Positions 3,049-17,591 of a stretch of DNA of 24,000 nucleotides are shown here, piece by piece; position 1 is the first letter of the stretch, and each line of letters starts with the position of its first letter. This DNA is from Vicingaceae bacterium. Lineage in GTDB: Bacteria; Bacteroidota; Bacteroidia; Flavobacteriales_E; Vicingaceae. Below the pieces are notes generated by a model, which was not told the origin of the DNA, did no database searches, and saw only the letters and a program-made list of their open reading frames with translations. The stretch covers positions 48,362 to 72,361 of the forward strand of contig JAVJVY010000009.1 in NCBI GenBank assembly GCA_040220895.1, given 5' to 3'. The position numbers and the translations under genes were made by a program.

Positions 3049-4478
3049 TTCTTTTCGAGCCCTGTACTGGTGATAATGTAACTCTCCTGGTAGTTGTCGT
3101 AATCAGTATTGATGTCCCAAAGGTCATTTGATGCCCCCTTGGATATATTTTCCGCCGCGCGCATCCCCATTAGGATAGAGTGGTCCTGGTTATTATATTT
3201 AAACGCGCCGTACCGACCTATGACGGAAAGGGACTCATAGGAACTAAGAAAGTCCTCTACAGGTTTCAAATGCTCTTTATATCCCATGCTATAGACCGGG
3301 TAACATCTTGGAAGGCGAATGACTTTACCATCCAGAATCGCTGCCTTTCCAATTAGTGAAGTTTTTCTTACCTCTTCTTGAGCCTGGGCAATTATTTCAT
3401 CGTCGCTCTTTGTCCAAAAATCGTCTTCCTCATAGCACCAGTATTCCAACGCCAAAATGGTCCTATTCTCATTTCCATATAGTTGTGGAACCCAATTTCT
3501 AAAATTCGTTATCCTCCCAAAACTTAGGTCCTGAGAGTGGATGTATAGCCAATTGTCGGGGAACAAGTCAACCGCATCAACGTGCAGATAAACCATAATG
3601 GTATTTCGATAGGTTAATTTGGAAACTTTGTTCCTTATCTGTTCGGGCACGTCATCCAGACGCTCCACCAGCAATGTCAAGGGCATGGACGAAATAACTT
3701 CGTCAAACTCAAGGGTATCGCCGTTCTCCAACTCAATGCCCACGGCCTTATTTCCCTTTGTCAATACCTTTTTGACAGGCCGGCTTAGGTGCACATATCC
3801 TCCATTAGCCATCACCTTTTCTTTCATTTTTTCGTATACCATTCCTGTCCCGCCCAAAGGATATGCAAACTGATCGACCAGCGTTTTATGCGTTCCCTTT
3901 TTGGTTAAGTGAAGTGCATTTTTAACTACTTCGAACAACGACAGTTTTTTTATCCGCTGAGCTGCAAAATCAGCATCCAACTTATCACAAGTAATCCCCC
4001 AGAGTTTTTCGCTATAAGTCTTAAAGAATATTTCAAACAGGCGTTTGCCGAAACGATTGGTGACCCAACCTTCAAATGTGCTAGTGTCTGGAGCCTTTCT
4101 AAATCGTTGAATGGCAAAACTCCACAGGCATCGCGCCGCTTCGATAAACCCCAGTTTGGAAAGTGCATCAAAGGGCTTTAACGGATAGTAAAAAAAATTG
4201 TCATCGTATAATATTCTGGTTAGACGGTCAACCATTTGATAATCCGAACCTACCACTTCGAGCCATAAGGAATTAACCTGCTTGTCGCTAGAAAAAAACC
4301 GGTGCGGCCCGATGTCTACCCGTTGATTCCAAAGGTCGATTGATTTGGCCAGACCGCCTACAAATGGGGCCGCCTCGAACACCTCGACGTTGATTCCCGC
4401 TTCTTTGGATAATTGATAGGCGGCGGTCATGCCGGCAGGTCCTGCGCCAATAACTGCTACACGTTTAGACGGTGTCAT
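3045..4478 (-). CDS. FAD/NAD(P)-binding oxidoreductase (amine oxidase / protoporphyrinogen oxidase / UDP-galactopyranose mutase-like superfamily)
   Basis: 477 aa. It has an N-terminal Rossmann dinucleotide motif, VAVIGAGPAGMTAAYQL, followed by EVFEA..VGG. The substrate cannot be inferred from sequence alone. Confidence 0.8.
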   Translation of the reverse strand: MTPSKRVAVIGAGPAGMTAAYQLSKEAGINVEVFEAAPFVGGLAKSIDLWNQRVDIGPHRFFSSDKQVNSLWLEVVGSDYQMVDRLTRILYDDNFFYYPLKPFDALSKLGFIEAARCLWSFAIQRFRKAPDTSTFEGWVTNRFGKRLFEIFFKTYSEKLWGITCDKLDADFAAQRIKKLSLFEVVKNALHLTKKGTHKTLVDQFAYPLGGTGMVYEKMKEKVMANGGYVHLSRPVKKVLTKGNKAVGIELENGDTLEFDEVISSMPLTLLVERLDDVPEQIRNKVSKLTYRNTIMVYLHVDAVDLFPDNWLYIHSQDLSFGRITNFRNWVPQLYGNENRTILALEYWCYEEDDFWTKSDDEIIAQAQEEVRKTSLIGKAAILDGKVIRLPRCYPVYSMGYKEHLKPVEDFLSSYESLSVIGRYGAFKYNNQDHSILMGMRAAENISKGASNDLWDINTDYDNYQESYIITSTGLEKN

Positions 4479-4530
4479 GGATTGTTAAAAGGAAGCCAAA
4501 ACTAATTAAAACTGGCTTAAGATTGGCATG

Positions 4531-6588
4531 TCAATGTTGAACCAAAAAGCGTAGATTGATCTGTTGCTCTGCATTGATCAGCACAAGGATATAAGCGCCA
4601 TTCTCGAGGTTCGTAACCTGTAGTTCCGCCATTCCTATCCCCATTGGTCTCGATGAAATTAGTTTCCTTCCCGACATGTCGCGTACTTCCAATTGATCAA
4701 CAGACCAATTATTTGGCCATTTGATCCATACACCCTCATCGGCCGGATTGGGGATCACGCTTACCTGATCTGCTAATCCAAGCTGATTTATTCCAACCGG
4801 ATGGGCTCGGAGTATATTCAAGCTGTATGTTTCCAGTGAGTATTCGAGATTACCATTCTTTAATGCCCGGATGGTCCATTTCCCTTTCAGGGTGTCAAGG
4901 TAATCAACACCGTAAAAATTCATTATGCTATCCAAAAAAGCAAAATCAGCCAAAAAATGTGCATTCATACCCCCATTATCCGAGCGCAGTTGAAATGATG
5001 CTGAATCGGTAAGGTCGGCGCCGATGGTATCAAACAACCATTCATAGGTCACGTTATCACGTGGTACGCTGTCCCAGAAAAAACTATAGTTACTTCCCTT
5101 TTTACTTTGAATCAAGACATTATTTTGTGGAAAAACCAGTGAAAATCCGATGTTACCACGTATTAGTAAAATGTTCCTGTTTGAAGAGGCATATTCTCGG
5201 TAGGCACTATCCTCGGCGCTGGCTGTCCATTGTAAATGGAGGCTGTCACCGATGGCGTAATTATTATCAAAGAACAAGCCGTAATAAAGTTCTTCATGGC
5301 CAATACTGTAATTACTATTTGCTCCATTATTTGGAGAAAAACCGGAATAAAGTGGATTTGAAAAATTGCCGCTGGTGTCGTCAAACTCCAGCTTATATTT
5401 TACCGAAGCATAATGGTTCAAGTCAGACCAATCGAATAATTTATTCTGACCGCCTTCAAGGGTTACAACGTTGTTGTTTGAAGGTGAAGTGAGGTTGAAT
5501 CCCAGCGTTTTTCGCGTCACAACAACGGTAAAAGCCTTGGCCGTATCGCTGTATTTTCCCAGTAACACTGAACGAACCGTCCATTCCAACGCAGTTGCGG
5601 TATTAAAAGGAAGGCCAACGCTACTCAATGCGGAATCTGCTTGATGATTGGTAATAGTGAAAACCGTGTCCTCGCCATTGTTATCTGCATTGGCAACAAG
5701 AAGTGGATTAGCGAACCCTGCACCTGGATAATCAAACATGATTTCGTACTTCAACACACCACAGTTATCGGCAAGACTCGATTTCTTCCAGGCAAATTGA
5801 TGCGTTAATTCATGAAATCCTTTTAATTCAATGCTCGAAAATGAAATGGGTGAAACAAGACTGAATGTCCCCGTTTTTGGTGCCAGATTAACGGAATCAA
5901 CCCATCTATATGCCGTGCTTAGATGTTGATTTCGATTCGGAAAATCGATGGTATGTCCCACACCGATCATGTAATTGGAGTCCACATAGGCACAGTTGGC
6001 ATTCAGGGCACTGAGCATAGGGAAAAATCGCGTATTTGGCACATCTAGACTTCCATGAACCAGGTAAAAAGGTTTTCGGCCGGATTTACTAATGGTGGAA
6101 GAAACAAAAGATGATCCGTTTACGGCTGCCCCAACGGGAATAAATCCCCCAAAAAGACCGGCGTGTTCCAAACCAAATTCGTAAACTGCCTTTCCTCCAA
6201 CCGAAAAGCCAATGGCATAAACACGGCCAGTATCCACATTGAACCATTTTCTGGCCGAATCCATTAACGCCAGGGTAAAGGCATAATCCACGCTGTCGGT
6301 AACATCTCCGTCACTGTCGCCGTCTGGACAAATCAACAGCAAGTCATTCATTTCTGCAAAAGCCAACAGGGTGTCACACCATGATTGAGCATTCCATCTT
6401 AACGTATTGAATGGGTGGAAGCCGACCATCATTTCATTGGCCGAGGATGCATTGTATGCGCTGGGTACGTATATGGAATATTTCTTGGCCGGATTACTCG
6501 AAAAGGCAAAAGAAGAATCAATACGCAACTGGGCTTCAACCATTTGATGGCTGGCCAGTAGAATTAAAAGTGGCAATAATTGTTTCAT
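4531..6588 (-). CDS. Secreted alpha/beta-hydrolase (esterase/depolymerase-like) with three internal repeats and a T9SS type A C-terminal sorting domain
   Basis: The signal peptide is MKQLLPLLILLASHQMVEAQ. The nucleophile elbow is GFSVGG (Ser129), with candidate Asp182 and His212. Three repeats of about 115 aa follow (aa 241-594). The C-terminus is Por_Secre_tail-like. Confidence 0.8.
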   Translation of the reverse strand: MKQLLPLLILLASHQMVEAQLRIDSSFAFSSNPAKKYSIYVPSAYNASSANEMMVGFHPFNTLRWNAQSWCDTLLAFAEMNDLLLICPDGDSDGDVTDSVDYAFTLALMDSARKWFNVDTGRVYAIGFSVGGKAVYEFGLEHAGLFGGFIPVGAAVNGSSFVSSTISKSGRKPFYLVHGSLDVPNTRFFPMLSALNANCAYVDSNYMIGVGHTIDFPNRNQHLSTAYRWVDSVNLAPKTGTFSLVSPISFSSIELKGFHELTHQFAWKKSSLADNCGVLKYEIMFDYPGAGFANPLLVANADNNGEDTVFTITNHQADSALSSVGLPFNTATALEWTVRSVLLGKYSDTAKAFTVVVTRKTLGFNLTSPSNNNVVTLEGGQNKLFDWSDLNHYASVKYKLEFDDTSGNFSNPLYSGFSPNNGANSNYSIGHEELYYGLFFDNNYAIGDSLHLQWTASAEDSAYREYASSNRNILLIRGNIGFSLVFPQNNVLIQSKKGSNYSFFWDSVPRDNVTYEWLFDTIGADLTDSASFQLRSDNGGMNAHFLADFAFLDSIMNFYGVDYLDTLKGKWTIRALKNGNLEYSLETYSLNILRAHPVGINQLGLADQVSVIPNPADEGVWIKWPNNWSVDQLEVRDMSGRKLISSRPMGIGMAELQVTNLENGAYILVLINAEQQINLRFLVQH
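4534..4764 (-). other. T9SS type A C-terminal sorting domain (CTD) of the esterase
   Basis: The last 77 aa read VSVIPNPADEGVWIKW...LEVRDMSGRKL...LENGAYILVLINAEQQINLRFLVQH. This follows the canonical type A CTD pattern (PNPA, xDxxGR, GxYxl, kfxk). Confidence 0.8.
4807..5868 (-). repeat. Three tandem protein-level repeats of about 115 aa inside the esterase gene
   Basis: The repeats cover aa 241-359, 362-477 and 480-594. They share F-x-L-x-x-P ... F-x-W ... V-x-Y-x-x-x-F-D ... F-x-N-P ... L-x-W-T-x-x-A. The repeats are diverged, so I see no DNA-level repeat. Confidence 0.6.
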
Positions 6589-6596
6589 ATCAAGCG

Positions 6597-6604
6597 CAAA
6601 TCTA
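6597..6604 (-). promoter_or_regulatory. Candidate Bacteroidota -7 promoter box (TAGATTTG) upstream of the esterase gene
   Basis: Exact match to TAnnTTTG on the minus strand, 8 nt upstream of the ATG at 6588. This would imply a very short or leaderless 5' UTR. I found no clear -33 TTG. Confidence 0.35.
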
Positions 6605-6742
6605 CGCCGAAAAGTTGACTAAATACATCGTTCAATGTCCTTCGCAGAAGTGGATACATAGCTATCCAAAAGATTTTGATTCCCCTTTTTGGCCATATTT
6701 CACACAATACATCAGGCTGTACAATTAGTTCTGTTTTTTTAT

Positions 6743-7573
6743 TTAATCATGTCGTGATATACCGGCAATTGCCTGCTTTAGCAAAGAGGTCAGATCTCCT
6801 TCGGCCTTTGCTGCAATGGCCATGATTTCTTTTATGTTGACAGGGGCAAGTCTGGTTGGATCGCAGTCATCGGTCAGCACCGAAAGTGCACAAACAGGCA
6901 GGCCTAAATAGTTGGCAACGATCACCTCGGGAACCGTTGACATGCCCACAGCGTCAGCACCCATGTTCCGAAGCATGCTGTATTCAGCCCTCGTTTCAAG
7001 ATTTGGACCCTGAACCGCCACATACACTCCTTTGCGCAATGTCAAGTCAATGCCGCTTGCGGCTTGATTGATTGCTGCACGCAGATCCGAATCATACGGT
7101 TCAAACATGTCGGGCCACCGGGGACCTACATCATGGTCATTTTCTCCACGAAGAGGATTTTCGGGAAGTAAATTGATGTGATCTTCAACCATCATGATGT
7201 CTCCTTTATTCCAGGCCGGATTTAAATTTCCTGCAGCATTAGAAACAAAAAGGCGCTTGATCCCTAATTTTTTTAGCACATATAGCGGAAAAGTGATGTC
7301 TTTCATAGAAAAACCTTCGTAGTAATGAAGACGGCCGTCCAGAGCTAATATCGGATGGCTATCAAGATTTCCAAGTACCATTTTTCCCTCGTGACTTACC
7401 ACTGTGGGCATCTTAAATCCAGGAATACTTGAATACTCAACTATCTTTATAATTTCTATTTCCTCAAGTAGTTGGCCCAGCCCGGTACCCAAAATAACCG
7501 CGCTTTTCGCCGAACCCATTCCAGCTCTTGTCAAGGTGCTAAATGCCTGATCAATGGTGTCTTTAAAGGACAC
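6743..7573 (-). CDS. Trimeric PNP/MTAP-family purine nucleoside phosphorylase; last gene of the rSAM operon
   Basis: It aligns by eye along its full length with PunA and human PNP (GTGLG, GRLHYYEG, SNAAGNLNP, GPNLETRAE, GADAVGMSTVPEVIVA). The GTG start at 7573 overlaps the upstream gene by 11 nt. The base-specificity position reads SVLTDDCD (Asp235) rather than the Asn of 6-oxopurine PNPs. Confidence 0.88.
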   Translation of the reverse strand: MSFKDTIDQAFSTLTRAGMGSAKSAVILGTGLGQLLEEIEIIKIVEYSSIPGFKMPTVVSHEGKMVLGNLDSHPILALDGRLHYYEGFSMKDITFPLYVLKKLGIKRLFVSNAAGNLNPAWNKGDIMMVEDHINLLPENPLRGENDHDVGPRWPDMFEPYDSDLRAAINQAASGIDLTLRKGVYVAVQGPNLETRAEYSMLRNMGADAVGMSTVPEVIVANYLGLPVCALSVLTDDCDPTRLAPVNIKEIMAIAAKAEGDLTSLLKQAIAGISRHD

Positions 7574-8186
7574 GACTTTGCTTATTTGACTTATAAACCT
7601 GGTACATCTTTTCGAAATGCCTGAAATCCGTAAGTGTATCTATGTCACGTTTAACCTGAAGCATGTGAACATTCAAGTCCAATTCAACGGCATTTGTCAT
7701 AAGTTCACGGCAGGTGGTTGAAGCACTCCAGGTAATTCCTTTCAGCAGAGAGGGATATTGCTCTTTTTGTCCCAATAGGTAGAATCCGCCATCCGCTGCC
7801 GGGCCCACGACAAGATCACTGCGGTCAAGCGCATTGAAGGCTTCCATAATCAGTTCTCCTGAAATCTCTGGACAATCGCTGCCAATGATCACCACTTTCC
7901 TCGCGCCGTCCATCAGGCAACTTTTAAGTGCATTATTTAATTTATCATCCAATTTTCCTTTGGACTGCTCTTTCACCTTCATTCCTTTTGTCATACTGAA
8001 ACGGTGATCGGGTTCGTCAAAGTAGAGGTGAACTGAAATGGGTAGGTCTGCAATGGCATCCATGGTGTGCTTCACCAACCACTTATATACCGCAAGTGCC
8101 TCTTCGTCTCCAAGGTATTGTGCAAGTCGGGTTTTTACCTTGCCCTGTACCTGACTTCGCATAAAAACTATTAAATGATCACTCAT
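7563..8186 (-). CDS. DUF2064 / TIGR04282-type transferase ('rSAM/selenodomain-associated transferase 1', annotated in databases as an arsenosugar-biosynthesis glycosyltransferase)
   Basis: 207 aa. The N-terminus LIVFMRSQVQGKVKTRLA, the segments VVIIGSDCPE and GPAADGGFYLLG, and a nucleotidyltransferase-like fold pattern are typical of DUF2064. Its context next to an ArsS-type rSAM supports the call. Confidence 0.75.
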   Translation of the reverse strand: MSDHLIVFMRSQVQGKVKTRLAQYLGDEEALAVYKWLVKHTMDAIADLPISVHLYFDEPDHRFSMTKGMKVKEQSKGKLDDKLNNALKSCLMDGARKVVIIGSDCPEISGELIMEAFNALDRSDLVVGPAADGGFYLLGQKEQYPSLLKGITWSASTTCRELMTNAVELDLNVHMLQVKRDIDTLTDFRHFEKMYQVYKSNKQSRVL

Positions 8187-8670
8187 ATGCTTTTTCCCCC
8201 TTGATCAGCCATTTTCCCCATGAATTGCTGTATGGATGTACTTTTTGAGTTTTTACTTCATTGCCATCAACGACGGAGTAACCATTGTTTACCCAATTAA
8301 AGATACCCCCGTATAAGTTTTTTACATTCTTATATCCGGCCTTTTCAATTTGTTCAGCCACTTTCTCACTTCGATATCCCACCGAACAGTATACGACAAT
8401 TTCACTGCCGGGATCCAAACTGAGCTGATTCATGTCAAAATCCTTATATCCAACCCAGAGGGCTCCTTCAAGATGACTTACCTGGTATTCTTCACGTGCT
8501 CTTGCATCAAGGATTACAAGGTTTGAGGAAGTTGTGCGTTCCTTGTCCAGTTCGTTTGGTTGAATCAGCGGAATGCTTTTGTCGATAAGATTGTCGACCA
8601 TTTGATCGAAGCTTTGACCCCTGATACCACAGGCTGCTAATAAAAGAAAGAATAATTGGCTGATTCTCAT
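8179..8670 (-). CDS. Exported single-domain rhodanese (sulfurtransferase-like)
   Basis: The signal or lipoprotein peptide is MRISQLFFLLLAACG. The active-site loop is YCSVGYRS (Cys95), and rhodanese-type flanks are present (LDARAREEYQVSHLEGA, NLYGGIFNW). Confidence 0.85.
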   Translation of the reverse strand: MRISQLFFLLLAACGIRGQSFDQMVDNLIDKSIPLIQPNELDKERTTSSNLVILDARAREEYQVSHLEGALWVGYKDFDMNQLSLDPGSEIVVYCSVGYRSEKVAEQIEKAGYKNVKNLYGGIFNWVNNGYSVVDGNEVKTQKVHPYSNSWGKWLIKGEKAYE

Positions 8671-8673
8671 TTA

Positions 8674-9726
8674 CTATTGACTTACTGTTGAGCCTTGGCA
8701 ACTTGATCCTGCTCCTGCTGTGCATCCATAACAGTGCTGTCCGGTCACAATTGCTCGTTGTTTAAGTGCCTGCAAACTTATGTCAGCTAAATTCATTCCC
8801 GATGAAGTCACAACTCCCAATTGTAGCATCTGATTAAAATCGCAGTCATAAACCTTACCGGTGTAATCAACCGATATGGTATTGCGACACATTAAACCAT
8901 CAACGGCAGCAGGATTAAATGACTCCACTAATTTTTCCATATAATCTTCGTAATTACCGCTAGCAATGAGATAGTCCAAAAAACGATTGATGGGCAGATT
9001 CGTTAGTGCGAATAATTGATTGAATGTTATATCATGGTTATCCTTTAGGACTCTTTTGAAGGTTCGCTCCAATTCCTTTTGATCACCTGGCAAAAATGCT
9101 CCACCCGGATTATAGACCAAGTCGAGTATCAGGTCATCTCCGTAACCAACTTCATTCAACATTCGCAAAGCCTTGATGGATTTATCGAAAACGCCATTGC
9201 CTCGTTGTCGATCAGTCTTTGATGCAGAGAAATATGGAAGCGAACTTACCACGCGTAATCGGTTTTCCCGAAAGAACTCGGGCAAATCCTGGTAAGAAGC
9301 ACTGGCCAGAAAAATGGTCAGATTGGAACGAACGATGATTTCCTTCACTCCCGCTTTTCTGAGTTCCGATATGAAATACCTGAAATTGGGATTCATTTCG
9401 GGAGCTCCGCCGGTAAGATCGACCGTGGGCACACCAAATTCACGAATTTTAGACACACAAAGGTCCATGACCTCGCGCTCCATAATTTCCTTTCTTTCGG
9501 GACCGGCATCCACATGGCAGTGCTTGCATGTTTGGTTACACATGTAGCCCAAATTGATTTGAAATATTTCGAGGTCCGTTGGTTTTAATTGCTGAAATCC
9601 ACTCTTCTTGAGCATTTCTTTGAATCTCGGGAGCTTTCCACCGGTAAAAAGGCCGTTGTTCAGAACATCGTTCTGGTAGGAGGGCGAAGCCAAGGTTGCA
9701 TTTAAATGTTTGAGTGTCTGGGCCAT
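8674..9726 (-). CDS. arsS: ArsS-type radical SAM / Cys-rich domain protein (TIGR04167-like)
   Basis: The CX3CX2C motif CNQTCKHC lies at aa 63-70 (nt 9517-9540). The C-terminal Cys-rich tail HCYGCTAGAGSSCQG (nt 8698-8733) is characteristic of this family. 350 aa. The gene symbol reflects family membership only, not a demonstrated substrate. Confidence 0.82.
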   Translation of the reverse strand: MAQTLKHLNATLASPSYQNDVLNNGLFTGGKLPRFKEMLKKSGFQQLKPTDLEIFQINLGYMCNQTCKHCHVDAGPERKEIMEREVMDLCVSKIREFGVPTVDLTGGAPEMNPNFRYFISELRKAGVKEIIVRSNLTIFLASASYQDLPEFFRENRLRVVSSLPYFSASKTDRQRGNGVFDKSIKALRMLNEVGYGDDLILDLVYNPGGAFLPGDQKELERTFKRVLKDNHDITFNQLFALTNLPINRFLDYLIASGNYEDYMEKLVESFNPAAVDGLMCRNTISVDYTGKVYDCDFNQMLQLGVVTSSGMNLADISLQALKQRAIVTGQHCYGCTAGAGSSCQGSTVSQ

Positions 9727-9727
9727 T

Positions 9728-10063
9728 TCACATGGAAAGTTTCTTGACCTTGTTCATCATTTGCACTCCGTGTACCAAAGAAGCTCCTCCGCGTATTGCA
9801 GCTGCTACGTGAACCGCTTCCATCATTTGGGCTTCATCCAGCCCTTTCTCCAAACAGCCAACGGAATACGCGTCTATGCAGTAAGGGCATTGAATGGTAT
9901 GCGAAACTGCCAGTGCGATCAATGCCTTTTCTCTCGCAGTTAGGGCTCCTTCCTCAAATACACTGTTGTAATATGAGAAGAACTTTTTGGCCAACTCCGG
10001 TTCAAATTCGGCGATGTCACCAAACTTTTTAAGGTCAGCGGGGTCGTAATAGGTGTTTTCCAT
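9728..10063 (-). CDS. AhpD/carboxymuconolactone-decarboxylase-like 'peroxidase-like' protein associated with ArsS-type rSAM clusters (TIGR04169-like)
   Basis: It starts MENTYYDPADLKKFG and has the AhpD-like CxxC motif SHTIQCPYCIDAY (CPYC at nt 9878-9889). The ATG at 10063 is preferred over the track's TTG at 10093. The stop lies 1 nt before the arsS ATG. Confidence 0.8.
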   Translation of the reverse strand: MENTYYDPADLKKFGDIAEFEPELAKKFFSYYNSVFEEGALTAREKALIALAVSHTIQCPYCIDAYSVGCLEKGLDEAQMMEAVHVAAAIRGGASLVHGVQMMNKVKKLSM

Positions 10064-10071
10064 TTTTGAGG

Positions 10072-10800
10072 TTATTTTCCGTTCAAATCCCAATTGTACT
10101 TCAAGAAGTTTAAACTGGCATTTTTAGCTATTTCCAAATGAGGAGTTTGTTTATTGATGTAAACCGGAATCGAAGATTCCTCCTTTAAAAAATCTGATGC
10201 GTACCACTCAAATATTTTTGAAACCTGCAAGTGATTCTTACTCAGTATATTATACCTATCATCGTTGATGAAACCCCTGGCTGCCAAACGGAGTTCAATG
10301 TTGAGATTTTCTGCTGTATAGGCCTTGTTTCTAAGTGGGGGGCACGATTTGGCGGAACAATTTATGGCAAAATGGATACGCGAATCATTGAATTGACCCA
10401 ACAGCATGGTCTTTTCTATGTAATTCAATGTATACAACTTACCGCCGATGTCAATGAAAGGAATATTCCAGGCATCTTTTCCATCTTCCTTTATGTCCAT
10501 GATCGTTTTTAGAGGATAGTATTTTAATATGAGTTTAATAGTGAATGCGTTATATGCATTTATCCAAAAAGCTTCTTGCTGTTCTACTTTCCAATTTGGT
10601 TGGGGCGGGTTCTTTTCTAAAAACTCCAGGTATTGATTTAGTACTTCTTCATCGCTTTTAAAACCTTGGTAATTTACATTGCCATATGGATCAACGTATT
10701 TCTGTAAAAGGTCCGTCCATTGCCCATGAGTGACATTCTGTGACCATAAAAAAGAAGTAAAGGTGAACAGCAGTATAGTTGCAACGATTGATTTTAGCAT
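10072..10800 (-). CDS. Exported DUF547-domain protein; first gene of the rSAM operon
   Basis: It has the DUF547 signatures EAFWINAYNAFTIKLIL and DSRIHFAINCSAKSCPPL. I chose the ATG at 10800, which gives the signal peptide MLKSIVATILLFTFTSFLWSQ. The track ORF extends to 11073, but that extension overlaps the divergent gene and has no signal-peptide logic. Confidence 0.8.
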   Translation of the reverse strand: MLKSIVATILLFTFTSFLWSQNVTHGQWTDLLQKYVDPYGNVNYQGFKSDEEVLNQYLEFLEKNPPQPNWKVEQQEAFWINAYNAFTIKLILKYYPLKTIMDIKEDGKDAWNIPFIDIGGKLYTLNYIEKTMLLGQFNDSRIHFAINCSAKSCPPLRNKAYTAENLNIELRLAARGFINDDRYNILSKNHLQVSKIFEWYASDFLKEESSIPVYINKQTPHLEIAKNASLNFLKYNWDLNGK

Positions 10801-10814
10801 GGGATTCTTTTGAA

Positions 10815-10822
10815 CAAATGTA
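10815..10822 (-). promoter_or_regulatory. Candidate Bacteroidota -7 promoter box (TACATTTG) for the rSAM operon
   Basis: Exact TAnnTTTG match on the minus strand, 15 nt upstream of the DUF547 ATG, within the 106-bp divergent intergenic region. On the plus strand, TATCTTTA (10876-10883, one mismatch) lies upstream of the aminotransferase. Confidence 0.4.
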
Positions 10823-10906
10823 CCAAATAAGGATGTTAGATAATTGTCCGGCTTTTTACAATACTCCAATTGTAATATCTTTACATTTAACGCCGAAACA
10901 ACCACC

Positions 10907-12064
10907 ATGCCACAGTTTTCAGGATCTATTCGCTCTAAACTACCACAAGTAGAAACGAGCATTTTTACCACTATGAGCCACCTGGCCGTCCAGGAACAGG
11001 CCATAAACCTCTCACAAGGATTCCCCGACTTTAGCTGCAGCCCCTCACTGATAGAACTTGTGAATAAATTCATGCAGGCAGGCTATAATCAATACAGCCA
11101 TATGGCCGGTTTTATTGGATTGAGAAAAGTGATCTCTGATAAGGTCGAGAAATTGTACGGCTTGAGGTACAACGCTGAAACTGAAATTACTATTACGGCC
11201 GGGGGCACTCAGGCCATATTTACGGCCATTATTAGTAGCATAAGTGAAGGCGATGAAGTCATCATTTTTACCCCCGCTTACGATTGTTTTGAGCCGGCAA
11301 TTGAATTGAGCGGAGGCAAGCCGATCTTTGTGCAACTGAGCGGCCCGGATTATCATATTGATTGGGAGTTGGTAAAGAAAGTGATCAACCAGAAAACCAA
11401 GATGATCATTATTAATTCGCCGCACAATCCGACTGGAAATGTGCTTACCGAGGAAGATTTTGACCAGTTGGAAAAAATTGTCGGTAATTCAGACATCCTG
11501 GTGCTGAGCGATGAGGTCTATGAGCATATTGTGTTTGATGGCAGGCAGCACCAGAGCATGGCTCGATTTCCGAAATTGGCTGAACGCAGCTTTGTAGTTT
11601 CTTCTTTTGGAAAGACATATCATACCACGGGTTGGAAAGTGGGGTATTGCCTTGCTCCCGAAAACTTGATGAAAGAATTCAGGAAGGCGCATCAATACAT
11701 TGTTTTTGCCGTGAACACCCCAATACAGCATGCCTTGTCAGAATTTCTCTTGTACGAAGATGCCTACAATGGCCTTTCCGCTTTTTACCAAGACAAGCGA
11801 GACCTCTTTTTAAAATTAATAGCGAACAGTCGCTTTAAATTCGAGCCCAGCAAAGGCACCTATTTCCAACTTTTAAGATACGATGGGATCACGGATATGG
11901 GCGACGTAGAGTATGCCATTGAACTGACAAAAAAGAATAAACTGGCCTCCATTCCAGTATCGGTATTCTATCATAAAAAAGTAGACAACAAAGTGCTGCG
12001 GTTTTGCTTTGCCAAAGACGACAGTACGTTGCAGGCCGCGGCAGAAATACTAAACTTTCTATAA
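10907..12064 (+). CDS. ybdL: PLP-dependent methionine/glutamine aminotransferase (YbdL-like, class I)
   Basis: It aligns by eye end to end with E. coli YbdL (SKLPQVETSIFTTMSHLA, AINLSQGFPDF, SDEVYEHIVF, SSFGKTYHTTGWKVGYC with the PLP lysine, LRFCFAK). The ATG at 10907 fits the YbdL N-terminus better than the track start at 10844. Confidence 0.88.
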   Translation: MPQFSGSIRSKLPQVETSIFTTMSHLAVQEQAINLSQGFPDFSCSPSLIELVNKFMQAGYNQYSHMAGFIGLRKVISDKVEKLYGLRYNAETEITITAGGTQAIFTAIISSISEGDEVIIFTPAYDCFEPAIELSGGKPIFVQLSGPDYHIDWELVKKVINQKTKMIIINSPHNPTGNVLTEEDFDQLEKIVGNSDILVLSDEVYEHIVFDGRQHQSMARFPKLAERSFVVSSFGKTYHTTGWKVGYCLAPENLMKEFRKAHQYIVFAVNTPIQHALSEFLLYEDAYNGLSAFYQDKRDLFLKLIANSRFKFEPSKGTYFQLLRYDGITDMGDVEYAIELTKKNKLASIPVSVFYHKKVDNKVLRFCFAKDDSTLQAAAEILNFL

Positions 12065-12065
12065 C

Positions 12066-12872
12066 GTGTCTGACCTTAAGATCTCTTTGATTCAAACGGA
12101 ATTGTTTTGGGAAAACAAGAGGGCAAACTTCGAATTCCTTGCAAGGAAGATCGCTGAATTAAAAGGGAAAACCGACATTGTCCTTTTACCGGAAATGTTC
12201 TCTACCGGTTTTACCATGAACGCTAAAATTCTGGCGGAAAGCATGGATGGAAATACTATCTCTTGGATGCACCAACAAGCAAAAGAATATGGGCTGGTTG
12301 TTGCGGGAAGTTTTATTTGCAATGAGCAGGGCAAGTATTATAACCGCTTTGTATGGATGCCTCCTGATGGAAATCCGATCCATTACGATAAAAAGCACCT
12401 TTTCAGAATGGCAAAGGAAGAGGCGCATTATTCTCCGGGCAACCACCTAAAAACCATTGAGTATAATAATTGGAAAATACGGCCAATGGTATGCTACGAT
12501 CTTAGATTTCCAGTTTGGAGCAGCAATCGTGTAAATCAGACTCAGGGAAGTCTCAACCCAGCATTTGACGTCCTTCTTTACGTAGCCAACTGGCCCAAAG
12601 TTAGAGTTTCGGCCTGGGATATATTGCTAAGGGCCAGAGCAGTTGAAAATCAAGTTTACTGCCTGGGTGTTAACAGGGTTGGTGAAGATGGTAATGGAAA
12701 GGTCTATTCGGGACATTCAGCTGTTATCGAACCCAAGGGCTCTTATTTACTGGAACCCGTGATTGATATTGAGGGGTCTTTCACCGTTGCCCTGAACAAA
12801 TCCTACCTTGAGGACTACCGTAAAAAATTTCCACAAGGACTTGATGCGGATCAGTTTGAGCTAACGAATTAA
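12066..12872 (+). CDS. yafV: Omega-amidase / carbon-nitrogen hydrolase (YafV-like, 2-oxoglutaramate amidase)
   Basis: It aligns by eye with E. coli YafV. The Glu-Lys-Cys triad contexts are LPEMF, YDKKHLF and VCYDLRFPVWS. The GTG start lies 1 nt after the ybdL stop. Confidence 0.87.
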   Translation: MSDLKISLIQTELFWENKRANFEFLARKIAELKGKTDIVLLPEMFSTGFTMNAKILAESMDGNTISWMHQQAKEYGLVVAGSFICNEQGKYYNRFVWMPPDGNPIHYDKKHLFRMAKEEAHYSPGNHLKTIEYNNWKIRPMVCYDLRFPVWSSNRVNQTQGSLNPAFDVLLYVANWPKVRVSAWDILLRARAVENQVYCLGVNRVGEDGNGKVYSGHSAVIEPKGSYLLEPVIDIEGSFTVALNKSYLEDYRKKFPQGLDADQFELTN

Positions 12873-15800
12873 GTTCAGGCTACCTTTTTCTTCTTTGGAC
12901 GCTATATTTCCATCTGCTTCTTTGATCTTATAAAAGATCTTCCAAACATAGGTGTCAGAGGGCACCGGTTTGCCATCTTTTGTCCCATCCCAGGTGAAAT
13001 TTGGGTTCTTAGTAAGGTATATCAGCTCTCCCCATCGGTTATAAATGTGGAACTCAAAATCATCAAGATTCAAAGCGCTTATACTGAATATATCGTTGAT
13101 CTGATCGTTGTTTGGAGTAAAGGCATTCGGTACAAAAATCTTTTCAGTACAGTACTCTACGACTTTTGAAAAACTTCGAACTTCACACACGCGCCCATTA
13201 ATTATTGTCACGCCATAGGTTCCTTCTTCAGAAACCGTGATTGAAGGTGTTACTTGTCCATTATCCCATTTGTAGCGGTAATCTTCACCTCCGGCACTAA
13301 GGGTAATGCCAAAGGGGTTTTCCTTTTTGCAAAATACGGCCGTGCGGGGTAATTCAGAAACCGGATATTCGTAAACCACTAGATTCGTTGAATCTCGTCC
13401 TATACAGGTGCCATCGTTGATCTCAACCCAATAAAAGCCCGGAGTTCGGACAACTATTTGTTGGCTTGTTTCACCCGTAGACCATGAGTAGGCAGAACCT
13501 GCATTTGATGCGTCAAGAATGGCGCTGTCACCTTCACAGATTTCTGTAAAAAATCGAATGTCTGTTTTTGGAAGAGGCGCCAATCCTATTTCCACCGTAT
13601 CGGTAAAGGTGCAATTGAAGGCATCTGTTACGCGCACCCAGTACTGACCGTCGCCTAAAACCAAGAGCACTGAATCAGATGAGTTGTCTTGCCATGCATA
13701 AGATGCAAAGTCGGGTCCCGCCTTTAACTTAAGAAATCCGCCTAAGCAGTAATTGGTGTCAGGACCTAAATCGAGTAGCGGCGAAGGGTATACTGTAAGG
13801 GTGAGACTATCCTCATCGGTACATCCAAATGAATTTGTTACACCTAGCACAAAAGTCGTTGTTTCATTGACGCGTGCAACGGGATTGGGGATTGAAGCGT
13901 CGTCCAAAGCCGCTGCAGGAGTCCAGTTGTAAGTACCACCACCACTGCCCTGCAGCTGAACAATTTCATCCCTGCAAACGTTCCTGCTTGCCGAAACCAC
14001 GGCTGCTGGATTTGGCAACAAATTGATGAAAACAGTGTCAGATTTGATACAACCCGAAGTGTCAATTACCATGACCGAATAAAATGAACCGTTTTTAACA
14101 GTCACACTCGGATTGGGAATGGTATCGTTTGAAACTTCCCAACCTGGGTACCAAAAGTATTTAGGGTCGGCCGCATTGGTGGTAACGCTTAACGGATAAT
14201 CGGTTGTATTACACAGCGTGGTGTCTTTCTGCGCGTCAACATCAAAACTTATTAATGAAAGATCGATGCTGTCGGTGAGGATGCATCCGGTGGTCAAGTC
14301 TGTAAGATCTAAATAATACCGCCCCGGACTATCCATCAATGCTTTTGGATTTTTTAAGGTTGGGTTGTCGAATAAGTTCGACGGCGACCAGTCATAACTG
14401 AAACTATTGGGCACGTAAGAACAGTACTTAAAGCCAATATTGGCTCGACGGTTATACAAGCTGGCAGAATTATTACTGCAAACCGAATTTCCGCGGTTGT
14501 AAGAAACACAGTTGAAAACCGGGAAGGGCTGAGAATAGCGGACCTCCGAGCTGATGCCCAAAGCACTATTTTGATAGCAAACCTCTACCACCACATTGGA
14601 GAGTCCGTCCCAGTTAAATCGGTTGTCGAAATCAAACCAATTTATACCGTTGACCAGAATAATGTCTTTTGGTTCAAAAACCGTGGCCAGACCACCAGTA
14701 AACGTGGTTGACAGTGAGTTGCTCGACGTACAACCCATTTTAATTCTAAAATTTTGATAGTCGTCTTTGCCGAGGTTTGAAATGTCGAATGAAAGTGATG
14801 AGATCTGACCCGAAGTGTTCAAACCGGCCGAAGCTATTTCAGCTGCAGTGATTAGAAACTGTTTTCTTCCGCTAAGATCACTGGAAACAAAAGGGGTGAT
14901 GTTGAACTGGGAAGAAGTAAAGGTTTGCGTTCCTATATTCATGGTAGAAGATGCATTACAAAGCGAGGAATTGGATTTACCACAACCCAGCAAAGGATTC
15001 GCGAAAAGCCTGAGGCTATCACCTTCGCAATTAGGTCCTGCGGCCGAAGATAAATTGATGTCAAGGGCATCTTGGACGCCAAAATTCAACGTGTCCCATT
15101 TGATACAGCCCAAGCTGGATTTTATTTCAGATAAGATTGTAATTGCATCATTTACAAATATATACGGGTTTGAAACACTTGTCGAAGACACTAAAGCAGC
15201 GGGTGACCAAAGGTAGGTTACAGGGTTCGAAGAGGTATGACTGGCATTGAGCTGTACACTGTCTTCTATACACAAGATCGAATCGGCCGTGGTCGTAGTA
15301 TTGAAATTGGGGGCAACCGTGATGTCAATGGTGTCAAGGTCAAAACAACCCGTCTGTGGATCGGTAACCCTTAGTTCATAAGGGGTACTTGCCGAGGGGG
15401 AAGCCTTCACATTGGGAATGGTATCGTTGTCCAGTCCGGCGGCGGGCGTCCATTGGTAGGAGTAAGCCTGATTGGGGGGGCTAGCGCAATATTTCAAGCG
15501 CATTTCGGGCCGTACCGTCGTTCCGAAATTCGCAACTGTGTCACTACAAAAAGGTGGCGAATTCCACTTCATGGCAGTTCTGTTTGCTGCCAGAATCGTA
15601 TAATTCATGGTGGTAAAAGTGAAGCCAAGGGAAGAAGTATTTTGCCAGCAGACTTCAACCACCAGGTTGGATGTTCCGTCCCAGACATAAGGCGCATCAA
15701 AAGCGTAGTCATTCCACCCCGAACTAATGTTGATGTTCTTAGGCGTGTAAACCGTCTGAGTGGATTGAATGAATGGGATTGAACCAAAACCGGTAAATGA

Positions 15801-17591
15801 ACTCTGAGATGTACAACCGATCTTAATGGTAAATCCTTGTCGCAGCGTAGAAGCCGAACCCGTTGAAAGGAGGTTAAATCCAAGAGAGGTAATGCTCTTG
15901 GAATTGGTCAAAGCGGCGAGTTCCGAAGCCAAAATGATGTATTGCTTCTTTTGACCCGGATTATTTCCAAAACCATTCGCGTCGTATGGACTGATGGTCA
16001 CCCCACCGGAGGGAAAGCTGGATGTACCCGAAAAGGTCAAGTCAGACTGATTGGTGCAGCTAATCCAATTGTATGCCTGACATCCCACCGCACTGGTGCT
16101 TATGTCTATGGGCAAAGAATCACCGGCGCAAATCGTGGTGTCTTGAGTAAGAATGGCCGTATTAACCGGTGGGTTTAAACTGACACTGAAACTATCTGTT
16201 CTTTCACAACCGGCTGTGCTCTTTATTGAGAGATATACCACAGCGTCTGCTGTAAAATAAGCTGTAGTGTTGGGCAAGGTGTCATTTGTGATTAATGCTC
16301 CAGACGACCATTGATAGCTGGCTCCTGGCCCGGCATTATCTGTGGATATCAATGGAATCGTATCGGCTTCACATAAGGCCGTATCACTGTTAACGGTAAA
16401 CGCAAAGCTATTACCCACGACAATCTCAGAGGTATCAACCACCAAACAACCGTTTGCATCAGTGATCGTGGCAATATAAGTGGTTGTTGATGTTGGACTG
16501 GCCTTTGGCGATCGAATAACGGCTGAAGACAAGCCGGCAGTTGGTGTCCAAGTGTAAGTAAGCGTATCGGTATGAACCAGGTCGCAAAATTTAAAACGAG
16601 TGTTAGGCCTACGGTTTATGTTTTGGCCAGAATTAACTCCGCAAACATTGCTATTCGCCACTTGGTAGCGCATTACATTTTGTCCTGTTATAATTTCATA
16701 TTGAATAAAAGGCGTACCATTCGATGCAGAAGCATTCACATAGCACAATTCAACCACTAAATTGCTCTCCCCATCCCAACGAAAAGCATTGTCAAATACA
16801 AATTCTCTCCAGCCACTTCCGCTGATGACCGTTGTTTTAGGGATGTAGACATTCGACAGCCCACCTTGCCAATTTCCAAACACCGAATCGTTAGTACAGC
16901 CTATGTTAATTCGCAAATTGTCGTAGGTCTGACTGCCGGTAAACAAATTGAAATTGAAGAAAAGCGAAGTAAGATTGGTAGGGCCGGTTACACCAACATT
17001 GGTAAGGTCGTTTTTGGTGAAAATGAACTGCCGCTTGTTACTTCGAACTTGTTGAAAAAAATTATTGACTTTATAAAATGGATTCTCAAACTGAGACCCT
17101 CCCCAAAAGGTGCCTGAACCTACTGTTCCGGTTGTCGTGGTAGTTAAGCAAGTGCCGGGGACCACTGCACAAAGCGCCGTATTTGTGATTTTGAGTTGCA
17201 CGCTGTCACCTCCGCATATGGTGTCCCTTTGGGGAATTATTCCAACTGGAGGCGGAACGTTTTGCACAGTGATAGTAACGACATCAGTGACCGTATCAGA
17301 AGTTGGGGTGTTTATTACGGTAACAGTGTAAATTGTGGAAGAGCTTGGCGTTGCCACAGGACTGGCAATGTTCGCGTTGTTTAGGCCCGTGGCAGGTGAC
17401 CAAGTATACGTATAACTGCTGCCCCCCGATGGGGTGGTAAAAAGTTGAACAGAGCTTCCGGGGCAAATGGTGGTGTCAGCGCTCGAAACAGTTGTTATTT
17501 GCGCAATTAGATCTGTGGAGCAAAGTATTGTAAGCACCGCAGGCAAAACAAATGCCTTTAAAAAGCCATGAGTCGAAAAATGTCCATTCAT
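12861..17591 (-). CDS. Giant (1576 aa) cell-surface repeat protein with a T9SS type B C-terminal domain (SprB-class adhesin-like)
   Basis: The signal peptide is ...VLPAVLTILCSTDLIAQ. Many Ig-like repeats of about 80 aa follow the pattern C-x-G-D-S..L ... Y-x-W-x-P..GL ... NP ... T-x-Y ... GC..D. There are three inserted modules of about 190 aa. The C-terminus is a gliding-motility/CHU_C-type domain. Confidence 0.9.
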   Translation of the reverse strand: MNGHFSTHGFLKAFVLPAVLTILCSTDLIAQITTVSSADTTICPGSSVQLFTTPSGGSSYTYTWSPATGLNNANIASPVATPSSSTIYTVTVINTPTSDTVTDVVTITVQNVPPPVGIIPQRDTICGGDSVQLKITNTALCAVVPGTCLTTTTTGTVGSGTFWGGSQFENPFYKVNNFFQQVRSNKRQFIFTKNDLTNVGVTGPTNLTSLFFNFNLFTGSQTYDNLRINIGCTNDSVFGNWQGGLSNVYIPKTTVISGSGWREFVFDNAFRWDGESNLVVELCYVNASASNGTPFIQYEIITGQNVMRYQVANSNVCGVNSGQNINRRPNTRFKFCDLVHTDTLTYTWTPTAGLSSAVIRSPKASPTSTTTYIATITDANGCLVVDTSEIVVGNSFAFTVNSDTALCEADTIPLISTDNAGPGASYQWSSGALITNDTLPNTTAYFTADAVVYLSIKSTAGCERTDSFSVSLNPPVNTAILTQDTTICAGDSLPIDISTSAVGCQAYNWISCTNQSDLTFSGTSSFPSGGVTISPYDANGFGNNPGQKKQYIILASELAALTNSKSITSLGFNLLSTGSASTLRQGFTIKIGCTSQSSFTGFGSIPFIQSTQTVYTPKNINISSGWNDYAFDAPYVWDGTSNLVVEVCWQNTSSLGFTFTTMNYTILAANRTAMKWNSPPFCSDTVANFGTTVRPEMRLKYCASPPNQAYSYQWTPAAGLDNDTIPNVKASPSASTPYELRVTDPQTGCFDLDTIDITVAPNFNTTTTADSILCIEDSVQLNASHTSSNPVTYLWSPAALVSSTSVSNPYIFVNDAITILSEIKSSLGCIKWDTLNFGVQDALDINLSSAAGPNCEGDSLRLFANPLLGCGKSNSSLCNASSTMNIGTQTFTSSQFNITPFVSSDLSGRKQFLITAAEIASAGLNTSGQISSLSFDISNLGKDDYQNFRIKMGCTSSNSLSTTFTGGLATVFEPKDIILVNGINWFDFDNRFNWDGLSNVVVEVCYQNSALGISSEVRYSQPFPVFNCVSYNRGNSVCSNNSASLYNRRANIGFKYCSYVPNSFSYDWSPSNLFDNPTLKNPKALMDSPGRYYLDLTDLTTGCILTDSIDLSLISFDVDAQKDTTLCNTTDYPLSVTTNAADPKYFWYPGWEVSNDTIPNPSVTVKNGSFYSVMVIDTSGCIKSDTVFINLLPNPAAVVSASRNVCRDEIVQLQGSGGGTYNWTPAAALDDASIPNPVARVNETTTFVLGVTNSFGCTDEDSLTLTVYPSPLLDLGPDTNYCLGGFLKLKAGPDFASYAWQDNSSDSVLLVLGDGQYWVRVTDAFNCTFTDTVEIGLAPLPKTDIRFFTEICEGDSAILDASNAGSAYSWSTGETSQQIVVRTPGFYWVEINDGTCIGRDSTNLVVYEYPVSELPRTAVFCKKENPFGITLSAGGEDYRYKWDNGQVTPSITVSEEGTYGVTIINGRVCEVRSFSKVVEYCTEKIFVPNAFTPNNDQINDIFSISALNLDDFEFHIYNRWGELIYLTKNPNFTWDGTKDGKPVPSDTYVWKIFYKIKEADGNIASKEEKGSLNLIR
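12864..13151 (-). other. T9SS type B CTD (gliding motility-associated C-terminal domain) of the giant protein
   Basis: aa 1481-1576 read CTEKIFVPNAFTPNNDQINDIFSI...FHIYNRWGELIY...WDGTKDGKPVPSDTYVWKIFYK...GSLNLIR. Confidence 0.88.
14421..14984 (-). repeat. Unrecognised Cys-bracketed module, copy 3 (aa 870-1057)
   Basis: Sequence: CGKSNSSLC...RKQFLITAAEI...ISSLSFDI...NFRIKMGCT...INWFDFDNRFNWDGLSNVVVEVCYQN...RRANIGFKYC. Confidence 0.7.
15486..16082 (-). repeat. Unrecognised Cys-bracketed module, copy 2 (aa 504-702)
   Basis: Sequence: CQAYNWISC...KKQYIILASEL...ITSLGFNL...GFTIKIGCT...GWNDYAFDAPYVWDGTSNLVVEVCWQN...VRPEMRLKYC. Confidence 0.7.
16584..17171 (-). repeat. Unrecognised Cys-bracketed module, copy 1 (aa 141-336 of the giant protein)
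   Basis: Sequence: CAVVPGTC...KRQFIFTKNDL...LTSLFFNF...NLRINIGCT...GWREFVFDNAFRWDGESNLVVELCYVN...RRPNTRFKFC. Confidence 0.7.

Follow-up and report, generated by a model that had tools for sequence, protein, structure and literature searches.

The six-gene cassette and its protein families

In marine food webs, organic arsenic occurs mainly as arsenosugars. A group of six genes, which is probably a reduced member of the Bacteroidota arsenosugar biosynthesis cassette already curated by NCBIfam, is present in a stretch of DNA of 24,000 nucleotides (nt) from a metagenome-assembled genome (MAG) of a Vicingaceae bacterium (Bacteroidota). This whole stretch is referred to here as the window. Its contig also occurs in GCA_040216755.1 (JAVJOL010000007.1, 85.6 kb), in GCA_040219005.1 and in three Logan assemblies. 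Six consecutive open reading frames (ORFs) on the minus strand encode, in this order, a DUF547 protein, an AhpD-like protein, an ArsS-type enzyme of the radical S-adenosylmethionine (SAM) family, a rhodanese, a DUF2064 protein and a homolog of purine nucleoside phosphorylase (PNP) (Table 1). The genes are separated by gaps of 8, 1 and 3 nt, followed by overlaps of 8 and 11 nt. An earlier note on this DNA had described the six genes and their junctions; upon recomputation, both were exact, and the operon-like tight packing was borne out. In the NCBI annotation of the same contig, other start codons are used, resulting in a DUF547 protein of 310 amino acids (aa) and a DUF2064 protein of 199 aa. 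The signal peptide of the former and the hidden Markov model (HMM) alignment starts favor the 242-aa and 207-aa forms, respectively, with model position 1 aligned to residue 5 of the 207-aa DUF2064 form.

The proteins were assigned to families by comparing their profile scores with the curated NCBIfam, PRK and Pfam cut-offs. The radical SAM enzyme scores 424.7 bits on TIGR04167 (ArsS; cut-off 300), the AhpD-like protein 191.9 bits on TIGR04169 (cut-off 120), the DUF2064 protein 171.6 bits on TIGR04282 (cut-off 134), the rhodanese 186.8 bits on NF045521, ‘rhodanese near glycosyltransferase’ (cut-off 145), and the DUF547 protein 93.3 bits on Pfam DUF547 (PF04784; cut-off 27). The PNP homolog scores 325.2 bits on PRK08202 (cut-off 218) and 282.8 bits on TIGR01697 (cut-off 197.1). 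It lies just under the equivalog model of the inosine/guanosine-specific PNP I (TIGR01700; 290.0 bits, cut-off 293.35) and below the equivalog model of methylthioadenosine phosphorylase (MTAP) (TIGR01694; 94.4 bits, cut-off 274.85). In addition, Pfam DUF3641 is found on the radical SAM enzyme (183.5 bits) and Pfam DUF2064 on the DUF2064 protein (98.0 bits). With this HMM check, which had been proposed in the earlier note, all six family assignments made there are supported by scores above curated cut-offs. The three core families, TIGR04167, TIGR04169 and TIGR04282, had been described as a cassette, which agrees with their ‘arsenosugar biosynthesis’ names in NCBIfam and their co-occurrence in 80 related loci. 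The rhodanese had been listed among the partners with no established biochemical role; a dedicated curated model, NF045521, already exists for it.

The sequence motifs that had been named, CNQTCKHC, HCYGCTAGAGSSCQG and CPYC, are all found in the cassette proteins. CNQTCKHC is the CX3CX2C motif of radical SAM enzymes, and the C-terminal motif of ArsS, HCYGCTAGAGSSCQG, contains a cysteine where selenocysteine stands in some members of the ArsS family. This motif is almost invariant in 81 aligned sequences. ArsS belongs to the known selenoprotein families with a GxxU motif (PMC13188914). It has been shown that dimethylarsenite (DMAs(III)) is adenosylated by ArsS to 5'-deoxy-5'-dimethylarsinoyl-adenosine (DDMAA) (PMC13598754), and in Synechocystis, arsM and arsS are co-transcribed (bioRxiv 10.1101/2022.09.23.509062).

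Table 1. Features of the cassette and of its surroundings in the window.
Feature	Position	Strand	Remarks
DUF547 protein	10072..10800	minus	242 aa; N-terminal signal peptide MLKSIVATILLFTFTSFLWSQ; Pfam PF04784
AhpD/CMD-like protein with CPYC	9728..10063	minus	111 aa; TIGR04169
ArsS-type radical SAM enzyme	8674..9726	minus	350 aa; TIGR04167, Pfam Radical_SAM and DUF3641
Single-domain rhodanese	8179..8670	minus	163 aa; NF045521 rhoda_near_glyco
DUF2064/TIGR04282 protein, CofC/MobA-like	7563..8186	minus	207 aa
Trimeric-type purine nucleoside phosphorylase homolog	6743..7573	minus	276 aa, GTG start; PRK08202
Empty ArsM slot, spacer between PNP and next gene	6589..6742	minus	154 nt; synteny with L091
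Divergent intergenic region, DUF547 / methionine aminotransferase gene	10801..10906		106 nt; holds TACATTTG
TAnnTTTG box TACATTTG	10815-10822	minus	14 nt upstream of the DUF547 ATG
Box TAGATTTG	6597-6604	minus	in the PNP/SusE spacer, upstream of the SusE/T9SS gene
T9SS-tailed SusE-domain protein	4531-6588	minus	directly downstream of PNP
Methionine aminotransferase	10907-12064	plus	PRK09082, 564 bits; divergent from the cassette
Omega-amidase-like CN hydrolase	12066-12872	plus	PRK10438, 253 bits
CHU_C-tailed protein	12861-17591	minus	1576 aa
PorP/SprF family protein	18317-19387	minus
CHU_C-tailed protein	19404-21956	minus	850 aa
BrxA/BrxB-type bacilliredoxin	2227-2640	plus	TIGR04191, 206.6 bits

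Occurrence of the cassette in Bacteroidota

ArsS loci were scanned in one genome per GTDB species, and the best 80 of at least 600 loci were used. All of these 80 are from Bacteroidota, with identities of 55-62%. Neighboring genes were labeled using the window proteins and clusters of the remaining ORFs, and genes were counted in the 54 loci flanked by 8 kb or more on each side (full-flank loci). An AhpD-like gene is present in 53 of these, followed by TIGR04282 (35), PNP (30), ArsM (26), rhodanese (26), DUF547 (25) and TIGR04283 (22). The AhpD-like gene directly adjoins arsS in 53/54 full-flank loci, with a gap of 1 nt in the window, and the CPYC protein may be a constant redox partner of ArsS.

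The methyltransferase that follows PNP in related loci (322 aa) matches NF038099, ‘arsenosugar biosynthesis arsenite methyltransferase ArsM’, with 574 bits, and the family 2 glycosyltransferase (GT2) found beside DUF547 is TIGR04283. The order commonly observed in Flavobacteriaceae is AhpD-ArsS-Rhod-TIGR04282-PNP-ArsM-(OlsE-like fatty-acid hydroxylase)-DUF547-TIGR04283. In Tenacibaculum (L004 and L006), exactly the six-gene order of the window is found, followed by ArsM. About half of the full-flank loci are without ArsM within 10 kb, and ArsM is cleanly missing from the otherwise complete clusters L010, L026 (Confluentibacter flavum 3B), L040 (Gelidibacter sediminis DSM 28135), L043 and probably L015, with L026 and L040 being from cultured strains. 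In a neighbor-joining tree of ArsS, ArsM-linked and unlinked loci are interspersed. This, together with the nearly invariant C-terminal motif, indicates that the ArsS of the window is not a diverged subtype.

A contact between the cassette and an ars operon was observed in a Bacteroidota MAG (GCA_039819065.1; L088/L089), in which AhpD-ArsS-PNP-ArsM is divergent from ArsR-ArsI/CadI-ArsN2-ArsC (L088, 5435-10972). In L088, ArsI/CadI scores 127.8 (cut-off 116) and ArsN2 138.3 (cut-off 125), and the thioredoxin-type ArsC is slightly below its cut-off (165.7, cut-off 174.3). The ArsR, ArsI, ArsN2 and ArsC queries from L088 gave no match in the 80 GTDB loci, and among the loci seen, the contact occurs in L088/L089 only.

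In many Flavobacteriaceae, a recurrent group of genes was observed beside the cassette, encoding an NAD(P)/FAD oxidoreductase, a NapH-like 4Fe-4S membrane protein, an AglJ-like GT2, a cellulose-synthase-like GT2 and a large membrane protein. This group is found up- or downstream in L009, L010, L014, L020, L025, L026, L032, L043, L076 and L078.

A possible route from DDMAA to a riboside

The PNP homolog of the window carries the substitutions N243D, H257I and F200L (human PNP numbering), the second of which replaces a histidine that presumably contacts the 5'-OH. N243D, H257I/L and F200L are fixed in 40/40 cassette-linked PNPs and in the window (41/41), and the phosphate and ribose contacts His64, Arg84, His86, Tyr88, Met219, Ser220 and Glu201 are kept. 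Among solved structures, 4m1e and 4lna are the nearest, and they have the same pocket substitutions. Adenosine is not used by human PNP but is used by its E201Q:N243D mutant (PMC2799393), and His257 is an active-site residue of PNP (PMC9916683). Judged from its residues, the pocket of the cassette PNP is suited to an adenosine modified at the 5' position, for example DDMAA.

The TIGR04282 protein contains the motifs GKVKTRL (KxRL type) and IIGSDCP (acidic GSDCP motif). It also matches the CofC model TIGR03552 (E 5.6e-14), Pfam CofC and the PDB entry 3cgx, a ‘putative nucleotide-diphospho-sugar transferase’ (E 1e-22), and is probably a nucleotidyltransferase. A second, divergent DUF2064 paralog adjoins AhpD-ArsS in loci of the Muricauda, Maribacter and Pontibacter type. 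This paralog is located upstream of AhpD in L013, L018, L021, L022, L030, L042, L054, L056, L057, L060 and L063, and downstream of ArsS in L011, L050, L072 and L079. The paralog of L018 scores 100.6 bits on TIGR04282 (cut-off 134), and the paralog is sometimes found along with the canonical TIGR04282.

Based on its orthologs, ArsS would cleave SAM and transfer the 5'-deoxyadenosyl group onto dimethylarsenite, resulting in DDMAA. The dimethylarsenite, normally formed by ArsM, would be supplied here by an unlinked arsM or as external methylated arsenic. Gene content, pocket residues and fold suggest that the cassette PNP may then convert DDMAA by phosphorolysis to adenine and alpha-5-deoxy-5-dimethylarsinoyl-ribose-1-phosphate. 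From gene content and fold, the CofC-like TIGR04282 protein may use arsenoribose-1-phosphate and a nucleotide to form nucleoside diphosphate (NDP)-arsenoribose, and transfer to an acceptor by the GT2 (TIGR04283) would result in the beta-riboside typical of arsenosugars. The products of PNP are alpha-ribose-1-phosphates and GT2 enzymes invert, so a phosphorylase, a nucleotidyltransferase and a GT2 acting in this order would yield a beta-riboside, the natural arsenosugar configuration. The chain of PNP, TIGR04282 and GT2 is complete in many relatives, and its last enzyme is missing at the window locus. The earlier note had proposed that base removal and then transfer follow the adenosylation, and the PNP pocket and the CofC-like DUF2064 protein are consistent with this proposal. 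To our knowledge, only the first committed step (ArsM and ArsS) has been shown biochemically; a literature search on DUF2064, TIGR0428x, DDMAA and the later steps gave no relevant paper.

Rhodanese and DUF547 protein, probably exported

The rhodanese has a signal peptide, a lipobox-like LLAAC and the catalytic loop YCSVGYRSE. A signal peptide is present in 32/35 rhodanese homologs and Cys95 in all 35. Most of the cassette-linked DUF547 homologs also start with a signal peptide, and H143, C148, C153 and P154 (HFAxNC-x4-CP) are invariant in DUF547. Because both proteins carry signal peptides, a point absent from the earlier note, part of the system may work outside the cytoplasm. The AlphaFold (AF2) model of the DUF547 protein has a predicted local distance difference test (pLDDT) score of 95.1 and a predicted template modeling (pTM) score of 0.89, and a Foldseek search of this model against the PDB gave no fold match (best E 1.7). 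In plant class IV GRX-like proteins, the DUF547 domain is fused to glutaredoxin (PMC13621322), a fusion that hints at thiol chemistry. The bacilliredoxin gene in the window (Table 1) suggests that a bacillithiol-type thiol system is present in the organism, which may bear on arsenic thiol chemistry.

Probable loss of ArsM from its slot

The earlier note had reported that arsM, TIGR04283 and ars genes are lacking locally, and this is the case in the window and also ~8 kb past both ends. The flanks contain genes for tRNA synthetases, a peptidase, an OmpA-like protein and uncharacterized proteins, and no methyltransferase, GT2 or ars-type match was obtained among the Pfam-labeled called genes there. 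For TIGR04283, tblastn of the window with a member of the family (224.8 bits) gave no match, and no Glycos_transf_2 was found in the called genes of the flanks.

Two relatives, L090 and L091, were found through DUF547 homologs and share the whole 20-kb neighborhood with the window. In L091, DUF547-AhpD-ArsS-Rhod-DUF2064-PNP is followed by a 323-aa ArsM (535 bits on NF038099) and then by the same SusE/T9SS gene. L090 (ERZ25074452), which lies on a contig of 1.63 Mb, is without ArsM like the window, and its six-gene form has 39-81% protein identity. No remnant of ArsM was detected by permissive tblastn in the spacer between PNP and SusE of the window. All six window proteins are closer to L091 than to L090, DUF547 only marginally. 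The rhodanese and DUF2064 proteins of L090 and L091 resemble each other slightly more than either resembles its window counterpart. Since distant genera also have ArsM at this position, the most parsimonious history would involve two or more independent losses from the slot, assuming the rooting implied by the identities. For the six genes compared to L090 and L091, the proportion of nonsynonymous differences (pN) is 0.08-0.45 and that of synonymous differences (pS) is 0.76-0.90, the latter being saturated. The six genes are intact and under purifying selection.

The lack of ArsM reflects repeated loss from one slot at the level of lineages and does not point to a different substrate. On the basis of the missing arsM, the earlier note had not decided between As, Se, S or another substrate. 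This view is weakened by the ArsM in the slot of L091 and in Tenacibaculum, by the absence of ArsM from about half of the Bacteroidota ArsS loci without a split in the tree, and by the ars neighbors in L088. The neighborhood tabulation proposed in the same note found the six-gene order kept in L090, L091 and the Tenacibaculum loci.

An ArsM without ArsS within 6 kb on either side was observed in L096 (NF038099, 549 bits; 3974-6972 region). Because an ArsM of the same subfamily sits away from ArsS in this locus, an unlinked arsM in the genome of the window is plausible. The genes that adjoin the ArsM of L096 encode IF-2B and class II aldolase domains (Pfam) and were read as MtnA- and MtnB-like (methylthioribose or 5-deoxyribose salvage). 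A search with a Fulvivirga ArsM in a collection of 5.8 billion proteins gave at least 7949 near-equal matches, of which the best 120 were listed. P0255, P0273, P0253 and P0254 (NCBI or NCBI and Logan), obtained with the ArsM of L091 as query, were considered as the ArsM of the window organism and rejected, as all are from other assemblies.

Weighing the interpretation

Several points argue against reading the locus as a reduced arsenosugar cassette. No arsM, TIGR04283 or ars gene is present within ~42 kb (window and flanks), and, as a weak point since the source is a MAG, no ArsM from the window's organism is among the best 120 of ~7950 matches. The PNP signature is also found in two structural-genomics PNPs (Planctomyces and Spirosoma entries) and, by its residues, would fit 5'-deoxyadenosine or methylthioadenosine equally well. 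NCBI names TIGR04282 a glycosyltransferase and not a nucleotidyltransferase, and the role assignments of the AhpD-like protein, rhodanese and DUF547 are guesses. The literature searched gave no experimental demonstration of any step after DDMAA.

It is possible, though rather unlikely, that the cassette PNP acts in the clean-up of 5'-deoxyadenosine (or methylthioadenosine), an inhibitor formed as by-product when SAM cleavage by ArsS is uncoupled, and that TIGR04282 acts on another substrate. Asp243, Ile257 and Leu200 would suit any 5'-deoxy or 5'-thio adenosine, the Planctomyces and Spirosoma PNPs share this signature, and PNP is missing from 24/54 full-flank ArsS loci. However, when PNP is present, TIGR04282 is nearly always present as well (27/30 full-flank loci), and where coordinates are given, PNP is located directly after TIGR04282, often overlapping, and directly before ArsM. 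In addition, a phosphorylase, a CofC-like enzyme and an inverting GT2 would form a chemically coherent route to a beta-riboside.

Dimethylated arsenic is abundant in sea water and algal material. The organism could lack arsM altogether and convert dimethylated arsenic from other organisms to arsenosugar-type products, with the exported rhodanese, DUF547 and the AhpD-like thiol protein helping to capture dimethylarsenate or reduce it to the trivalent substrate. The ArsM slot is empty in the otherwise complete clusters L010, L026, L040, L043 and L015, and in the window and L090, and such scavenging would agree with the two or more losses that parsimony suggests in the window's own lineage, the purifying selection on the remaining genes, the two exported cysteine-bearing proteins and the lack of an ArsM of this organism among the best 120 matches. 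We nevertheless consider it unlikely, as ArsM of the same subfamily can sit apart from ArsS (L096), no uptake system or dimethylarsenate reductase was identified, and absence of arsM is not provable from a MAG. The broader proposal that some marine Bacteroidota, including that of the window, are arsM-free and feed the cassette with algal or microbial dimethylated arsenic, with rhodanese and DUF547 as a periplasmic module for the capture or reduction of methylated arsenic, is speculative and distinctly unlikely. If true, it would represent a cross-feeding route into arsenosugars and a first function for DUF547.

That the cassette handles selenium, sulfur, another metalloid or some other substrate in the lineage of the window is very unlikely. 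The family was first noticed through its selenoprotein members (PMC13188914), rhodaneses handle sulfur or selenium, and no arsenic gene is present in the window. Against this, the slot contains ArsM in the syntenic relative L091, the window ArsS does not separate from ArsM-linked copies in the tree and has an identical C-terminal motif, its equivalog score (425 bits) is near that of the ArsM-linked L088 (445 bits), and the same rhodanese subfamily is found in ArsM-containing clusters. A decaying remnant, as could be suspected from the lack of ArsM, fatty-acid hydroxylase and TIGR04283 compared to the nine-gene Flavobacteriaceae cluster, is hardly credible given six intact ORFs above curated cut-offs with their catalytic motifs, the retained tight junctions, a pN much lower than pS in the comparisons with L090 and with L091, and the persistence of the same ArsM-less form in L090.

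Regulatory signals and surroundings of the cassette

The earlier note had pointed to a TAnnTTTG box upstream of the first gene. This box, TACATTTG, is indeed present, but because TAnnTTTG occurs in the window at chance level (20 seen, 21 expected), it has no value as promoter evidence, and calling it a promoter is inference only. A scan of the window for sigma-70 promoters and terminators gave counts at or below shuffle expectation, and Rfam and tRNA scans of the window gave no match. Upstream of the SusE/T9SS-tailed gene (T9SS, type IX secretion system), the box TAGATTTG / TAGTTTTG is kept, along with similar flanking sequence, in the window, L090 (~14070) and L091 (~15100). Because the box is conserved in three syntenic genomes, it suggests that this gene has its own promoter and is outside the cassette.

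The CHU_C, PorP/SprF and SusE/T9SS neighbors are typical type IX secretion cargo of Bacteroidota. Other window genes encode TadA, the bacilliredoxin and an amine-oxidase-like flavoprotein. The methionine aminotransferase and the omega-amidase-like hydrolase resemble the glutamine transaminase and omega-amidase couple that closes methionine salvage. A functional tie of this pair to the SAM-consuming cassette was considered and is unsupported, as the pair is syntenic in L090 and L091 only and in 0/80 other loci.

Comparison with known systems

The window contains one more member of the cassette and not a new system, and the remaining biochemical questions concern the whole family. The cassette and its relatives suggest a route from DDMAA to the riboside through a PNP for 5'-modified adenosine, a CofC-like nucleotidyltransferase and an inverting GT2. 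The cassette genes are widespread in non-photosynthetic Bacteroidota (~7950 ArsM clusters at E <= 1e-100), and the recurrent ArsM-less versions raise the question of whether such bacteria rely on other organisms for methylated arsenic.

One of the closest known systems is ArsM-ArsS of Synechocystis sp. PCC 6803, which shares the radical SAM family TIGR04167 and has DDMAA as product (PMC13598754). In contrast to the arsS-arsM linkage in Synechocystis, no arsM is found beside arsS in the window or within ~42 kb, and the DUF547, AhpD-like, rhodanese, TIGR04282 and PNP partners are not mentioned in the cyanobacterial work quoted here. Compared to the nine-gene NCBIfam cassette of Flavobacteriaceae, 6/9 genes are present in the window, with AhpD-ArsS-Rhod-TIGR04282-PNP in the same order; the other three, ArsM, the OlsE-like hydroxylase and the GT2 TIGR04283, are not. 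DUF547 is located at the front of the operon in the window, as in Tenacibaculum and Polaribacter, whereas in the common Flavobacteriaceae order it is paired with TIGR04283. At the level of single enzymes, TIGR04282 resembles CofC (2-phospho-L-lactate guanylyltransferase of the F420 pathway) in matching CofC models and the GT-A-like 3cgx, while its putative substrate would differ, being arsenoribose-1-phosphate. Like the salvage enzymes of the MTAP and 5'-deoxyadenosine phosphorylase type, the cassette PNP has Asp where the base is recognized and a hydrophobic residue instead of His257, but unlike MTAP, it belongs by sequence to the trimeric PNP-I family (PRK08202).

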